Source: a bacterium
Lineage (GTDB): Bacteria > SM23-31
DNA: 64,000 bases
Assembly: GCA_965249485.1 (NCBI GenBank)
Contig: OZ252239.1
Span: 3,709,598 to 3,773,597, forward strand
Reading direction: 5' to 3'
How positions within the stretch are numbered: the stretch's first letter is position 1; the number at the start of each line of letters is the position of its first letter. Shown here in pieces: positions 24,887-64,000 of the stretch. A model generated the notes under the pieces. It did not search any database, had not been told where the DNA came from, and saw only the letters and a list, made by a program, of their open reading frames with translations. Position numbers and translations under genes: made by a program.

Positions 24887-26509
24887 ATGAACGTTCTTTC
24901 TTTACAAAAAACTGGATTCCTATTTTATCTCTTGATTATCACTTGTATCATGAGTTTTATATTGAGCTGTTCAGAAGGTAGCAATGATCTTCCAGTCAAT
25001 CTCTGGAAGGATTCGACTGCAGAAACAATCGGTATTACAGAATACTGGACTAATAGAATCGATATAGCTGATTTGAATGGTGACGGTCTGCCCGATATTC
25101 TCTGTGCTATTGGTGGCACAAACAATGCACCGCTGGACCCGGAGCTGAGCCGTGTGTATTTTAATTTGGGAGCTGAAAACGGATTTCAGGATGTGAGCGA
25201 ATTAGTTTTCGGCGATAGACGATGGATATCACGGGTTATTAAAGCGCGGGATATTAACAGCGACGGACATGCGGATATTGTTGTCGGAACGGCATTTTCA
25301 AATCAGAGCAGGCTTTACCTTGGGGACGGAACAGGTAATTTCAACGATGTTACCGCGACGCATCTTCCTCAGATAAATAGAAGTGTTTCCGATCTGGAAT
25401 TCGGCGACATCGATGAGGATGGAGACATCGATATAGCGTTGTCCGACTGGGGGCTGGGTGATCCTGCCCAGAATGACGGCGGCAGGCCGATGCTCTGGTT
25501 GAATGATGGAAACGGCCGATTTACAGATGTGACGGAAGTACGGATTCCCGATGTACGAGCCAAGTTTGCATGGGAATGTGAGCTGGTCGATGTCGATAAC
25601 GATTATGATCTCGATTTTCTCGTGACTGCGCGGTTTAATGAGAGCAGCTTTCTCTTTGAAAATGACGGCAAAGGAATGTTTACCGATGTATCGCAGAATC
25701 AACTTCCCCAGTATCCCGACAATTACGATTTTGAGGCGATTGACATGAATGGTGATGATTATCTCGATATGGTAACCATCAATGACGGGGAAAAAATTGA
25801 GGGGCCTAGTTCATCCAGCCGCAGGCAGCATATCTTTTTCAATGATGGAACAGGAACGTTTATTGACGTATCACCGACGCACTGGCCCGATTCGGAAAAT
25901 CCGGGGTACGATGATAACGTTGCTGCTTGCCTCGATTTCGATTCGGATGGAGATGCCGATGTGATGATTGCGTCATTGACCGGACCTGACCGGCTCCTTG
26001 TAAATGACGGTAAAGGACATTTGAGGATGGCGCCGGATGTGCTGTATGGGGGTAGGCCTACTGAGGGCACGCTCCATCTTACCGTTGCCGATATGAACAG
26101 TGATGGAAAAATCGATGTGATTCAGGCACAGGGTGAAACGGTGGATAAAATTGAGGAAGGTTCGTTCGAAGACAAAGTGTATCTCGGCACGAATATTTCG
26201 GTTGATACTGCTCCACCGGTTATATCGCTTGTAGAAGAGTTTGAAAATATAAATGCTGGTGACCAGCTAAGAATCCGTGCACGGATCCACGATAACAAAA
26301 GCCCCACTCTGCCATTTGAATGGCAATCAGTTGTGCTTCAATGGACACGTGATACTGAGACACACACTATCCCAATGGAATGGTACGGTGAATACCTCTG
26401 GCGTGCGGAAATAACCCCTGCTTCATCAGCCGGAACACTCACCTACCGTGTCTGTGCAACCGATGCCAATGGGAATGAAGCATGTTCGGATATGATAAAC
26501 GTCCAATAA
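24887..26509 (+). CDS. FG-GAP/VCBS repeat beta-propeller lipoprotein with C-terminal Ig-like domain
   Basis: Lipobox ILS-C. Seven DxxxDGxxD-type repeats (DLNGDGLPD, DINSDGHAD, DIDEDGDID, DVDNDYDLD, DMNGDDYLD, DFDSDGDAD, DMNSDGKID). Confidence 0.85.
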   Translation: MNVLSLQKTGFLFYLLIITCIMSFILSCSEGSNDLPVNLWKDSTAETIGITEYWTNRIDIADLNGDGLPDILCAIGGTNNAPLDPELSRVYFNLGAENGFQDVSELVFGDRRWISRVIKARDINSDGHADIVVGTAFSNQSRLYLGDGTGNFNDVTATHLPQINRSVSDLEFGDIDEDGDIDIALSDWGLGDPAQNDGGRPMLWLNDGNGRFTDVTEVRIPDVRAKFAWECELVDVDNDYDLDFLVTARFNESSFLFENDGKGMFTDVSQNQLPQYPDNYDFEAIDMNGDDYLDMVTINDGEKIEGPSSSSRRQHIFFNDGTGTFIDVSPTHWPDSENPGYDDNVAACLDFDSDGDADVMIASLTGPDRLLVNDGKGHLRMAPDVLYGGRPTEGTLHLTVADMNSDGKIDVIQAQGETVDKIEEGSFEDKVYLGTNISVDTAPPVISLVEEFENINAGDQLRIRARIHDNKSPTLPFEWQSVVLQWTRDTETHTIPMEWYGEYLWRAEITPASSAGTLTYRVCATDANGNEACSDMINVQ

Positions 26510-26542
26510 ACACTAATTTTTCAAATGCAAAAAGCAGTACGT

Positions 26543-61523: not shown

Positions 61524-61568
61524 CTCTTCACTCCATAGGTAGTATCTTTCATTGATTCATTTATCATA

Positions 61569-64000
61569 TTACTTGTCGTACCAAAAATCCTGCAGAATTT
61601 GGGATTTTTGTTTGAGTACCGTATCACCTGCTGTCAGGACAATGGTGTATTCACCCGGTTGAACACGGTGCAGCACATACTCTCGTCCCCGCATACCCGG
61701 CCTTCCCTGCACTCGTGTCCTAAGCGAAAGACCTGTTCTGCCAACTTCATCGTCCGGTTCTCCGAAAAACTCGTTTGTATCGTAATAGTCATAATACGGT
61801 TCTTCATCACCATATTTCATCTCATAATCCCATTCGGCTACTTCTTCAGCTGTTTTCTTTCTTCCTCGTTTTGTCATACCCCACATAACGCTATTGATAC
61901 CCGCATCGCCTGATCCTTCAAATTCGTTGATAAGAATTGGGCCATCATAAACCGAAATTTTCACTCCGCCGGTGATGTCATTCTTCAGGTAGTAATTAAC
62001 CATTGCACCATTCGGTTCGTTTTCACCTTCAAAGTTCTGCGCACTGACCGTCGTCTGGCTTGGCATAATCCACTGAATTTTGGGTTCAATTTTGAATAGA
62101 TGGACATTTTTTTTCACAACTTCCCTGGACAGTTCCTGCAGCGGAGAGATGTCGGCAATATAAAAACCACGGCCGAACGTACCGACAACCAGATCGTTTT
62201 CACGAGGATGGATTACAAGATCGTGCACCGGAATAGTCGGAAGGTCATTTTTTAGCTCATTCCAGTAATTTCCTCCGTCGAGCGATACATGAACTGTTCT
62301 GTCTGTCCCGACAAAAAGGAGATTCGGATTTTTGTGGTCTTCTTTAATCACATTAATACTTTTATCCGGCAGATTGTTCGCGATCGATTCCCACGTCTGC
62401 CCGTAATCGGACGTTTTATAGATGAACGGACTGAAATCGGTTCTATGTCGTCCCGTAAAGGTTACATACGCTACCGCCGGATCGTGGTGTGAGGCAATAA
62501 TCCTCGACACCCAATATTCGGGGTTATCAGGAATATTGTCATTCAGAAGAGTCCATGTTTCACCACCATCCTGCGTAACCTGCACATTCCCATCGTCCGA
62601 ACCGACCCAAATCAAATCCTGCGTAATCGGGGATTCATCAATCGATGTCAACGTCCCATATTGGCTCACTTCAAGTCCACCGAATTTCGACGCATCGTTC
62701 TTTGTCAGGTCGGGACTGACCTCTTCCCACCGCTCACCACGGTATGGGGATTTCAAAAGAATATTGGCACCATGATAGATAACATTGGAATTGTGCGGTG
62801 AGATCAATAACGGTGCATTCCAGTTAAACCGGAGATTCGGATTGCCTCTGTATCGGACTCTTTTCCGCACACCGGTTTTTTGATCGTTTCGGGAAAGGCC
62901 GCCAAATTGCGATTCGGTATAGAGCCATCTGCTGTTGGTCGGATCGACCTGATTGTAAAATCCGTCACCACCGAGTATATGTTCCCAGTCTTCAAACCTG
63001 ATTGGAAAGCGCCCTTTTTTTGTACTCGGCCCTTTCCATGAGCCGAAATCCTGTAAACCCCCGTAAACATTGTATGGATAGTCCATGTCGACACCGATTG
63101 CATAGAGCTGAGCCATCGATACATTATCAATATGAAACCAATTTTTCCCGGTATCGTAACTGATAGCAAAACCGTAATCGTAGCCAAGGAGTAAGTGTTC
63201 GCTGTTCTCCGGATCTATCCAGAGAACATGGTTATCTCCGGCGTATCGGGTTCCTCGGGCCCAGGTGCGGCCGGCATCCGTCGATTTGTGCACCATTGAA
63301 GCCAATACATACACAATGTCGTCATCATTCGGATCAACTATGATCTGTGCATAGTAATTTGCCCGCTCACCGACAGGGCCTTCGCTCACCTGACGCCATG
63401 AATCACCTCCGTTATCAGTCCGATAAACGATATTGCCGACAACATCTTCACTGGCTGGTTTTCCTGCCTGTACTTCGGCCCACCGCTCTTCATATGATAA
63501 CTCCGGTGAATTATCATCTTCGATTATTGCATAAACAATATCGGGGTTTCTGAGATAGACGGAGAGACCTATCTTGCCAATCAGACCGGACGGAAGACCG
63601 TTTGTCAGTTTTGTCCACGAATCACCACCGTCGGTCGATTTGTAGATTCCACTTGCCGGACCCGAACCGGAAAAACCCCACGGCTTACGGATTCGCTGAT
63701 AAGCGGCTGCGTACAGCACATCGGGATCACGGGGATCCATTACAACATCGGTTGCACCGACATAGACACCACCTTCAATTACTTCAAGCGATTTACTCCA
63801 TGTTCTGCCACCGTTAGTGGTCTTGTAGATGCCACGTTCAGGATTGTCTGTGTAGTAGTGCCCCTGTGCTGCTACATAAACAATATTCGGATTAGACGGA
63901 TTGACAACGATTCTCCCGATGTGGTGGGACTCTTTCAATCCGATATTTCGCCACGATTTTCCACCATCTGTCGATTTGTAAACACCATCACCATAATAGG
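61569..64000 (-). CDS. VPS10/sortilin-like BNR-repeat protein (tandem paralog, 5' end outside the window)
   Basis: Frame open to the window edge (YYGDGVYKSTDGGKSW...). Colinear with 58779-61523. Confidence 0.85.
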   Translation of the reverse strand, partial: YYGDGVYKSTDGGKSWRNIGLKESHHIGRIVVNPSNPNIVYVAAQGHYYTDNPERGIYKTTNGGRTWSKSLEVIEGGVYVGATDVVMDPRDPDVLYAAAYQRIRKPWGFSGSGPASGIYKSTDGGDSWTKLTNGLPSGLIGKIGLSVYLRNPDIVYAIIEDDNSPELSYEERWAEVQAGKPASEDVVGNIVYRTDNGGDSWRQVSEGPVGERANYYAQIIVDPNDDDIVYVLASMVHKSTDAGRTWARGTRYAGDNHVLWIDPENSEHLLLGYDYGFAISYDTGKNWFHIDNVSMAQLYAIGVDMDYPYNVYGGLQDFGSWKGPSTKKGRFPIRFEDWEHILGGDGFYNQVDPTNSRWLYTESQFGGLSRNDQKTGVRKRVRYRGNPNLRFNWNAPLLISPHNSNVIYHGANILLKSPYRGERWEEVSPDLTKNDASKFGGLEVSQYGTLTSIDESPITQDLIWVGSDDGNVQVTQDGGETWTLLNDNIPDNPEYWVSRIIASHHDPAVAYVTFTGRHRTDFSPFIYKTSDYGQTWESIANNLPDKSINVIKEDHKNPNLLFVGTDRTVHVSLDGGNYWNELKNDLPTIPVHDLVIHPRENDLVVGTFGRGFYIADISPLQELSREVVKKNVHLFKIEPKIQWIMPSQTTVSAQNFEGENEPNGAMVNYYLKNDITGGVKISVYDGPILINEFEGSGDAGINSVMWGMTKRGRKKTAEEVAEWDYEMKYGDEEPYYDYYDTNEFFGEPDDEVGRTGLSLRTRVQGRPGMRGREYVLHRVQPGEYTIVLTAGDTVLKQKSQILQDFWYDK

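Follow-up and report, generated by a model that had tools for sequence, protein, structure and literature searches.

A long array of predicted exported peptidase genes as a candidate peptide-trimming island in an SM23-31 bacterium

Why would a bacterium line up 22 consecutive genes for proteins that are nearly all predicted to be exported and are mostly of peptidase type? Such an array occupies positions 24887-64000 of a 64,000-nucleotide stretch (the window) from a bacterium of the GTDB lineage SM23-31 (GenBank assembly GCA_965249485.1, contig OZ252239.1, forward-strand positions 3,709,598 to 3,773,597). Much of carbon and nitrogen cycling consists of the turnover of proteins and peptides by uncultured bacteria, and peptide use, unlike glycan use, is without a recognised genomic signature comparable to the polysaccharide utilisation locus (PUL); we found no established concept or term of a 'protein utilisation locus' or 'peptide utilisation locus' in the literature. 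In the reading that we consider probable, the array is a vertically inherited island of exported, mostly metal-dependent exopeptidases that would trim peptides in the cell envelope, and an old gene neighbourhood that is loosely kept.

The listing of open reading frames (ORFs) gives 22 consecutive ORFs of 327-1082 amino acids (aa) in six strand blocks: g1 (+), g2-g13 (-), g14-g17 (+), g18 (-), g19 (+) and g20-g22 (-) (Table 1). The minus-strand frame of g22 (61569-64000) is still open at base 64000 and its orthologues have 931 aa, so that 21 genes have their 5' ends inside the window. All 21 readable N-termini have a positive start, a hydrophobic core and either an A-x-A/Q-type cleavage site or a lipobox cysteine. 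Export signals were predicted with a simple in-house heuristic rule, not with SignalP, and this rule is positive for 21 of 21 array genes versus 6 of 19 upstream genes (Fisher p = 2e-6), the six being three integral membrane transporters, DctP, a TorF-like porin and one protein without assignment. Among the 22 array proteins Pfam and NCBIfam detect no domain of a transporter, TonB-dependent receptor, regulator or housekeeping protein. The initial annotation, which had described 22 consecutive genes, 21 of them with exported-type N-termini, in a run that no such gene interrupts, therefore stands on these points.

GGAGG-type Shine-Dalgarno sites precede most array genes. Within same-strand runs the intergenic gaps are short (18-134 bp), suggesting that sub-operons are possible. 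The GC content is 0.43-0.48 over the array, slightly higher than the 0.39-0.46 of the upstream region, and Rfam and tRNA scans of the whole window found nothing.

Family assignments are from Pfam and NCBIfam, and paralogue identities are from pairwise comparison of the window proteins. With g4 and g18 counted as M34-like (see below), peptidase-type families account for 15 of the 22 genes: two M14, four M28, three M24 or M24B, three DUF885, one Tricorn/PD40-amidohydrolase and two M34-like. Many of these genes form paralogous sets, namely g4/g18 (34% identical), g5/g6 (47%), g8/g9 (31%), g10/g14/g17 (43-46%) and g11/g13 (31%), as do g15/g16 (61%) and g21/g22 (60%). The family count and the paralogue identities of 31-61% bear out the earlier description of the array as mostly peptidases in paralogous sets. 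That description is too simple in other respects: seven genes are not of peptidase type, the propeller label is secure only for g1, g19 (N-terminal part), g21 and g22, and g4, g9 and g10 are disrupted.

Read by eye, the M14 proteins g5 and g6 carry the HxxE motif (in NIHAGE and NIHGTE, respectively), NRNW (in DFNRNW) and SIHS (in YSIHSG). The M14 zinc motif, the N-R pair for the substrate carboxylate and the second zinc histidine are all present in both, and the catalytic glutamate is placed by eye only. A metagenome scan with g5 returned a single relative, at 27% identity. In a MAFFT alignment of the M28 proteins g10, g14, g17 and g20 the His, Asp, Glu-Glu, Asp and His positions are kept. The catalytic and metal motifs are also kept in g12, which matches the NCBIfam Xaa-Pro aminopeptidase model at 8e-54, under its cut-off, and the likely true start of which is the ATG of MYNMKIMK at about 43352. 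The M24 matches of g8 and g9 are weak, though over the Pfam threshold. Aligned to g12 with hhalign (5% probability), g8 and g9 match the D, D, E and E ligands and have no invariant histidine; a search of the Protein Data Bank (PDB) with g8 gave no match. The HxH motif is kept in g19, whose best NCBIfam match is a Caulobacter-type Xaa-Pro dipeptidase and whose orthologues are annotated as Tricorn_N. Pfam places DUF885 in the Peptidase_MA clan (PMC12572635), and we found no functional study of DUF885 in the literature.

Outside the peptidase families, g15 and g16 keep a GxSxG elbow and have feruloyl/CE1 esterases as their closest PDB matches. The NCBIfam GH130 and GH43 models match g2 at E values of about 5e-4 to 1e-3, far under their cut-offs, and the PDB matches of g2 to GH43 arabinanases have E values of 0.02-0.1, so that its likeness to the GH43/GH130 five-bladed propeller is sub-threshold only. 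The g21 and g22 proteins belong to the very large sortilin/BNR family, which has at least 7999 matches, many of them 53-61% identical across metagenomes; one g21 homologue (P0001) is 93% identical. A literature search on bacterial sortilin/BNR proteins yielded nothing useful.

Table 1 Genes of the array and neighbouring blocks in the window
Feature	Position	Strand	Description
g1	24887-26509	+	FG-GAP/VCBS-repeat lipoprotein, 540 aa; Pfam FG-GAP_3 1e-46; lipobox ILSC; non-peptidase
g2	26543-27526	-	Predicted exported protein, 327 aa; no Pfam family
g3	27561-29276	-	DUF885 lipoprotein; HEVYPGH motif; Pfam 1e-63; PDB 3u24 2e-20
g4	29396-30527	-	Predicted M34/ATLF-like EEXXH lipoprotein; frameshifted; orthologues 376 aa
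g5	30584-32374	-	M14 zinc carboxypeptidase, 596 aa; Pfam M14 7e-29; PDB matches carboxypeptidases A/B/T/D
g6	32502-34262	-	M14 zinc carboxypeptidase; paralogue of g5
g7	34334-35329	-	FGE-sulfatase/SUMF1-fold lipoprotein; Pfam 8e-56; NCBIfam matches all under cut-off; non-peptidase
g8	35357-36682	-	Predicted exported M24 (pita-bread fold)-like protein, 441 aa; Pfam M24 35.7 bits (cut-off 23)
g9	36774-38154	-	M24-like, paralogue of g8; frameshifted; orthologue 450 aa
g10	38260-39894	-	M28 peptidase; 544 codons in one frame, in-frame TGA
g11	40188-41816	-	DUF885 lipoprotein; HEFLGH motif
g12	41880-43418	-	Predicted exported Xaa-Pro aminopeptidase type, M24B + AMP_N; Pfam M24 7e-41, AMP_N 1e-15
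g13	43614-45314	-	DUF885 paralogue; degenerate motif HHYHWF
g14	45642-47165	+	M28, 507 aa; every metal and catalytic position kept
g15	47255-48940	+	Predicted exported alpha/beta-hydrolase, 'Esterase' PF00756-like; GGSTGG nucleophile elbow; no recognised peptidase family
g16	48959-50629	+	Paralogue of g15; PF00756-like
g17	50690-52213	+	M28, 507 aa; catalytic positions kept
g18	52316-53398	-	Predicted M34/ATLF-like EEXXH lipoprotein, intact (E240-E241-x-x-H244 ... E308-Y309)
g19	53936-57184	+	1082 aa; TolB/Tricorn-like PD40 propellers and C-terminal amidohydrolase (DLHAHP)
g20	57334-58722	-	M28 (LapA-like) lipoprotein aminopeptidase
g21	58779-61523	-	Sortilin-Vps10/BNR repeat protein, 914 aa; no catalytic family
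g22	61569-64000	-	Sortilin-Vps10/BNR, paralogue of g21; 5' end beyond window
TRAP transporter DctP/Q/M	12679-15610	+	Homologues inside equivalent arrays of distant relatives
Catabolism block	17685-24752		MR/MLE, MFS, proline dehydrogenase, SDR, OCD/mu-crystallin, methionine gamma-lyase-like

The g4 and g18 proteins reach no Pfam model, and neither the g4 sequence nor its profile matches any PDB entry. Relatives of their type number 10 by single-sequence search of 5.8 billion clusters and 43 by profile search, and an exhaustive HMMER search with the family profile returns 976 proteins at E <= 1e-3. Of ten remote relatives that were sampled, four exceed the gathering score of PF07737 (ATLF, the anthrax-lethal-factor/M34 domain). 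In a joint alignment these ATLF-passing relatives have HEFxH at the columns where g18 has V-E240-E241-F-G-H244, which aligns the active-site helix (xEFGH), and the downstream E308-Y309 pair is invariant or nearly so across the wider alignment. We had initially taken E263 as the third zinc ligand and dropped it, because the wider alignment points to E308-Y309.

Together, the helix and the candidate third-ligand Glu-Tyr pair downstream liken g4 and g18 to the ATLF/PPEP (M34) proteins. They differ from these in an extra N-terminal three-helix region, in a lipoprotein anchor and in the motif itself: no HEXXH is found, and in all 28 aligned g4/g18 family members the first zinc-binding histidine is replaced by glutamate (EEXXH). 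An AlphaFold (AF2) model of g18 (predicted local distance difference test (pLDDT) 63, predicted template modelling score (pTM) 0.58) has only zincins as its best Foldseek matches, namely PPEP-1/2/3 and M1 aminopeptidases; the PPEP matches have probabilities of 0.75-0.97 across crystal chains but E values of 0.03-0.1. A g4 model built from 12 sequences (pLDDT 53) was discarded. By two independent lines, the fold match and a remote-homology chain of profiles, g4 and g18 are predicted divergent M34-like zincin lipoproteins. M34 relatives such as the Pro-Pro endopeptidases (PPEP) are endopeptidases.

Is the array a stable feature of its lineage? We located close relatives by scanning species-representative genomes with g12. 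The nearest chromosomes are OZ244870.1 (87% aa identity) and OZ251221.1 (74%), and further matches lie in KSB1 and Acidobacteriota genomes (50-57%). The array is syntenic in a sister species at about 88-92% nucleotide identity (loci L088, L004 and L083) and in a sister genus at about 72-75% (OZ251221.1, with loci L001 and L002). The L088 order is g12-g11-g10-[decayed M28 copy]-g9-g8-[g7 stub]-g4-g3-g2-g1, and the genes beyond g1 are those of the window (methionine gamma-lyase-like, OCD, SDR, proline dehydrogenase and MFS); g1 is 91% identical there. L004 runs from g18 to g3 without g13, g5 and g6, with g12 frameshifted and an internal deletion in g11. In both L004 and L088, g7 is reduced to residues 1-58.

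The sister-genus chromosome OZ251221.1 is contiguous, with three sortilin genes followed by g20, g19, g18, a split g14 orthologue, g12, g11, two frameshifted g10 copies, g9, g8, g4 and g3. The g14 orthologue is interrupted there by an insertion with genes for an IS1595-family transposase, a D12-class DNA methyltransferase and a PDDEXK nuclease-like protein (L001 20036-22377, corresponding to L002 at about 6000-8550). In the sister species, loci L082-L085 carry the pyruvate dehydrogenase (PDH) genes E3/E2/E1, three sortilin genes and then g20 and g19. On OZ244870.1 (3,784,425 bp) this block (L085) occupies record positions 1-14185, its sortilin-bearing end sitting at the record origin and being cut off there, and the g18-g3 block (L004) lies at 1463209-1484673. 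In a second sister genome (L083), non-array DNA including AbiJ-like fragments follows g19. Because the sister-genus array is contiguous and that of the sister species is split, the contiguous array is, as judged from gene order, the ancestral form.

The left junction of the array, between the methionine gamma-lyase-like gene and g1, is present in L088 and the g18-g19 junction is present in L001 and L002. Both junctions therefore exist in relatives, which argues that the contig is not a chimera, a possibility that had been raised together with that of scattered orthologues. The latter applies in part, since the g19-g22 block and the g3-g18 block are 1.46 Mb apart in the closest relatives. Horizontal acquisition was ruled out: integrase or tRNA borders are absent, the GC content is barely above that of the flank and the position is the same in relatives. 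Sortilin genes occur as three tandem copies in every relative. The array thus ends, in relatives, with one more sortilin gene than the window holds, followed by pyruvate dehydrogenase E1/E2/E3, and this continuation contains no TonB or ABC uptake system of the kind that the initial annotation had suggested looking for. By this comparison the island is about 40 kb long, or about 43 kb when the third sortilin gene is counted.

Content varies among the close relatives. A 4.5-kb loss spans g5-g7 in the sister species (g5 and g6 being absent), and g13 occurs only in the window genome among those compared, where it forms a 2-kb insertion or deletion relative to L004. An extra fragmented M28 copy lies between g10 and g9 in L004 (14779-16036), L088 (4995-6574) and L002 (14724-16314); in the window only about 130 bp separate these two genes, with no extra copy.

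Both members of most paralogue pairs are already present in the sister genus which, with identities of only 31-61%, indicates that the duplications are old. The proposal that the array grew by local duplication therefore holds for its distant past, paralogues often being adjacent, and fails for its recent history: on this evidence local duplication built the paralogue sets long ago, and more recently the array has changed chiefly by loss, decay, insertion-sequence insertion and rearrangement. Selection on the array has been purifying. The ratio of non-synonymous to synonymous substitution rates (dN/dS) against the sister species is 0.06-0.15 for 14 array genes (0.13 for g1, 0.15 for g8) and 0.11-0.18 for three flanking cytoplasmic genes, suggesting that the array is maintained and is not decaying as a whole. 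Rates against the sister genus were left out owing to saturated dS.

Three more distant loci, in two arrangements, carry the same mix of families in another order. L089 and L096 share one arrangement, with TRAP DctPQM genes inside the cluster (53-62% identical to those of the window), a g11-like DUF885 gene (47-48%), an epimerase, an SDR, a g18-like gene (62%), a PALP enzyme, a PD40 protein, a g17-like M28 (47-48%), an M24 and a g19-like protein (48%). L096 has an additional intact g14-like M28 (52%), of which L089 has only a fragment. The other arrangement, L095, has three g6-like M14 genes (41-52%), a g2-like gene (64%), an M28 (59%), a g18-like gene (60%), a PQQ propeller, a sortilin gene (63%), an arylsulfotransferase, an FG-GAP/UnbV protein and an M24. 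The families that cluster again in these loci are M14, M28, M24, DUF885, M34-like, Tricorn-amidohydrolase, sortilin and FG-GAP, and the co-occurrence of unrelated families in varied orders indicates that duplication alone is insufficient to explain the array. Nor is clustering a general property of the array families, since homologues of g12 in 78 other loci (mostly Acidobacteriota) have no other array gene within 10 kb. Synteny in sister species and genus, the low dN/dS and the recurrence in three distant loci uphold the earlier suggestion of a functionally linked, exported peptide-degrading set.

How might such a set work? M14, M28 and M24B enzymes and the prolidases and carboxypeptidases of the amidohydrolase superfamily act on peptide ends. 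In the mechanism that we propose, every step of which we infer, oligopeptides would arrive at the envelope and be trimmed from their C termini by the M14 enzymes and the propeller-gated amidohydrolase, and from their N termini by the M28 enzymes and the M24B Xaa-Pro aminopeptidase. The DUF885 proteins and the M34-like EEXXH lipoproteins g4 and g18 may contribute extra cleavage or binding, and the FG-GAP, sortilin/BNR, g2, FGE-sulfatase-like and esterase-like proteins may be accessory binding or de-modifying proteins. Freed amino acids and small derivatives would then be taken up through nearby secondary transporters (TRAP DctPQM, MFS and SSF) and used in the cytoplasm by the OCD family, proline dehydrogenase, MR/MLE, methionine gamma-lyase-like and agmatinase-family enzymes, and by ArcC, the ArcE-like protein and ArcB.

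The genes upstream of the array supply the candidates for these last steps. In the sister species the 17685-24752 block remains syntenic with the array. Its 17685-23325 part (MR/MLE, MFS, proline dehydrogenase, SDR and an OCD/pyrroline-2-carboxylate-reductase-type gene) resembles a set for hydroxyproline/proline catabolism. The MR/MLE enzyme has a sub-threshold match to cis-3-hydroxy-L-proline dehydratase, and the proline dehydrogenase gene is frameshifted in L088. Other upstream genes encode ArcC, a 437-aa protein, a HAD hydrolase, ArcB, a split SSF symporter, the TorF-like porin, an agmatinase-family enzyme and an aldo-keto reductase; the 24 kb upstream of the array contain no regulator domain. 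The TorF-family putative outer-membrane porin (9593-10345), which scores under its cut-off, is encoded between the symporter gene and that of the agmatinase-family enzyme; its presence implies a diderm envelope. The SSF sodium:solute symporter gene (7038-8589) is read as two overlapping frames (7038-7790 and 7510-8586), a frameshift that marks either a pseudogene or an assembly error.

Four of these genes, arcC, the gene for the 437-aa protein, the HAD hydrolase gene and arcB (2159-6581), form a candidate arginine synthetase pathway cluster about 20 kb from the array. Carbamate kinase (arcC) scores 408.5 bits against a cut-off of 358.25 and ornithine carbamoyltransferase (arcB) scores 576.6 against 515. 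Encoded between the two, at 3397-4710, is the 437-aa protein, which has a weak match to cyclic 2,3-diphosphoglycerate synthetase (E = 1.2e-5). ArcE (TK2200) was formerly a 'putative GTPase' with low similarity to the cyclic 2,3-diphosphoglycerate synthetase family, and arcE often neighbours arcB and arcC (PMC11032458), so that the same weak match and the same neighbours make 'ArcE-like' a reasonable label for the 437-aa protein. No arginine deiminase was detected in the window. That the array peptidases supply arginine to an ArcE pathway, as had been suggested, can only be inferred, and the genes nearer the array would fit proline/ornithine and methionine catabolism at least as well as arginine.

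Several observations weigh against an island for peptide trimming. The array includes neither a canonical endopeptidase nor an outer-membrane uptake component. Seven of the 22 genes lie outside peptidase families (FG-GAP, the possible propeller g2, FGE-sulfatase-like, two esterase-like and two sortilin/BNR), and the esterase-like, GH43/130-like, FGE-sulfatase-like and BNR members raise the possibility of glycan or modified substrates. In relatives g5-g7, g13 or g15-g17 are missing, and in the sister species the PDH/sortilin/g20/g19 block is about 1.46 Mb from the g18-g3 block, so that the island need not be in one piece. A g4/g18-type gene stands outside such arrays in two lineages (L086/L087 and the marine Tara-type L091-L093). 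Three genes carry one disabling lesion each: a frameshift in a T5 run near 29523-29527 in g4, a frameshift in G/A runs near 36980 in g9, and an in-frame TGA at 38785-38787 in g10 (TGG to TGA), where paralogues have the tryptophan of LWGxEE. The g10 orthologue is intact in L004 and L088. Beyond the lesions the sequences of g4, g9 and g10 are 93-97% identical to intact orthologues, indicating that the lesions are very recent or are assembly errors.

Signs of common regulation were not found either, and this too counts against the island as a functional unit. The genes are spread over six strand blocks, no upstream motif is shared among array genes (the candidate words ACATTTTGTCT and TGTATAACA are not enriched) and promoter and terminator scans are at background and uninformative on co-expression, the exception being a terminator at 52252-52286, between the convergent g17 and g18. 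This is a strong hairpin with a 15-bp stem and T tracts, and no other terminator in the array is convincing. Between the divergent g13 and g14, a 339-bp region contains an 18-nt imperfect inverted repeat (45361-45407, core TGTATAACA ... TGTTATACA) that could be an operator, its core word not being enriched elsewhere in the window. The island is probably made of several short operons, in an old neighbourhood that is loosely kept, and not one regulated unit.

These points give some purchase to the view that the clustering is a historical accretion without selective value, left by old tandem duplications and low recombination, of genes that are used and regulated independently. The paralogues are adjacent but old (31-61%), the strand blocks are six and share no regulatory motif, neither block shows signs of decay after the split in the sister species, content varies freely among relatives and the array has no regulator or transporter within it. 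We nevertheless think accretion unlikely, because unrelated families are found together again, reordered, in three distant loci of two arrangements, homologues of g12 at 78 other loci are unclustered, and all 21 testable products are predicted to be exported compared with about three soluble exported proteins among the 19 neighbours. A mere artefact, in which the contig is chimeric or mis-assembled or the ORFs are over-called, seems to us very improbable. Assembly errors could account for the frameshifts or stop codon in three array genes and in the symporter gene upstream, two of which fall in homopolymer runs, but relatives assembled independently show the whole order and both junctions, each ORF either matches a family or has conserved orthologues under purifying selection, and the GC content of the array (0.43-0.48) is barely above that upstream (0.39-0.46).

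The island might alternatively serve one kind of substrate, proline-rich, modified or glycosylated (collagen-like or other matrix glycoproteins, or proteoglycans), rather than peptides in general, with the esterase-like, GH43/130-like, FGE-sulfatase-like and BNR/sortilin proteins stripping or binding modifications and proline-specific enzymes finishing the peptides. Pointers to prolyl bonds come from g12, g8, g9 and g19, and from g4 and g18, whose nearest structures are Pro-Pro endopeptidases. The flanking MR/MLE, OCD/pyrroline-2-carboxylate-reductase-type and proline dehydrogenase genes fit proline/hydroxyproline catabolism, the non-peptidase members have carbohydrate-esterase, GH-like or sulfatase-related folds, and L095 carries an arylsulfotransferase and a PQQ propeller. 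Such specialisation strikes us as rather unlikely, since all the specificity calls fall under curated cut-offs, the weak PPEP fold similarity is uninformative on specificity, and collagenases (M9 or U32), sulfatases and clear glycoside hydrolases are absent from the array. Bolder still, and in our view distinctly doubtful, is a co-regulated 'protein utilisation locus' outside the Bacteroidota, in which the sortilin/Vps10-like propellers would capture peptide ends as SusD does glycans, the EEXXH lipoproteins would be a new envelope endopeptidase or a peptide-binding pseudo-peptidase for proline-rich matrix proteins, and TRAP would be the dedicated importer. We continue to favour a vertically inherited island of exopeptidases for general peptide trimming.

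If so, a recurrent neighbourhood of exported M14, M28, M24, DUF885, M34-like, Tricorn-amidohydrolase and sortilin genes beside TRAP and amino-acid catabolism genes could serve as a marker of peptide use, and would give functional context to DUF885, to the bacterial sortilin/BNR proteins and to the EEXXH M34-like lipoproteins. If the clustering is merely historical, the array is just one lineage's large peptidase island.

How does the array compare with known systems? It resembles a Bacteroidota PUL in that genes for exported and lipoprotein hydrolases of several families lie side by side with genes for non-catalytic binding-type proteins, would serve the use of one polymer class and vary among relatives. 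It differs in having no SusC-like TonB-dependent transporter, SusD-like lipoprotein, hybrid two-component regulator or extracytoplasmic-function (ECF)/anti-sigma regulator, and in that its substrates would be peptides and the uptake genes closest to it, which are not part of it, encode secondary transporters. The 22 proteins and the continuation in relatives lack any TonB-dependent receptor, plug or SusD domain. Since a SusC/SusD pair, a TonB-dependent receptor and a regulator are absent both from the array and from the DNA that immediately adjoins it, the array does not qualify as the protein analogue of a PUL that the initial annotation had proposed; it appears PUL-like only in the loose sense of clustered exported hydrolases. 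Shine-Dalgarno use argues against the Bacteroidota.

Envelope trimming of oligopeptides by many exported exopeptidases, with uptake and fermentation or oxidation of the small products, is familiar from Porphyromonas gingivalis, which has the periplasmic exopeptidases DPP4/5/7/11, PTP-A and others together with the RagAB oligopeptide importer; the array would work on the same principle. The P. gingivalis enzymes are serine peptidases (S9 and S46) encoded by scattered genes and paired with SusCD-like uptake, whereas those of the array are metallopeptidases encoded in a cluster.

The closest parallel to the array is the 'peptidase island' of Lysobacter enzymogenes M497-1, with nine consecutive peptidase genes (PMC5397603). 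Both are uninterrupted runs of secreted-peptidase genes in one chromosomal island, that of L. enzymogenes comprising sub-operons with their own promoters (PMC5397603), and the array has 15 of 22 genes of peptidase type and predicted export signals on all 21 testable products. The array is more than twice as long, is dominated by metallo-exopeptidases in contrast to the lytic endopeptidases for which M497-1 is known, includes propeller, DUF885 and M34-like proteins as well, and is conserved over several uncultured lineages. On these grounds it is a larger, exopeptidase-dominated peptidase island that is common to several lineages.

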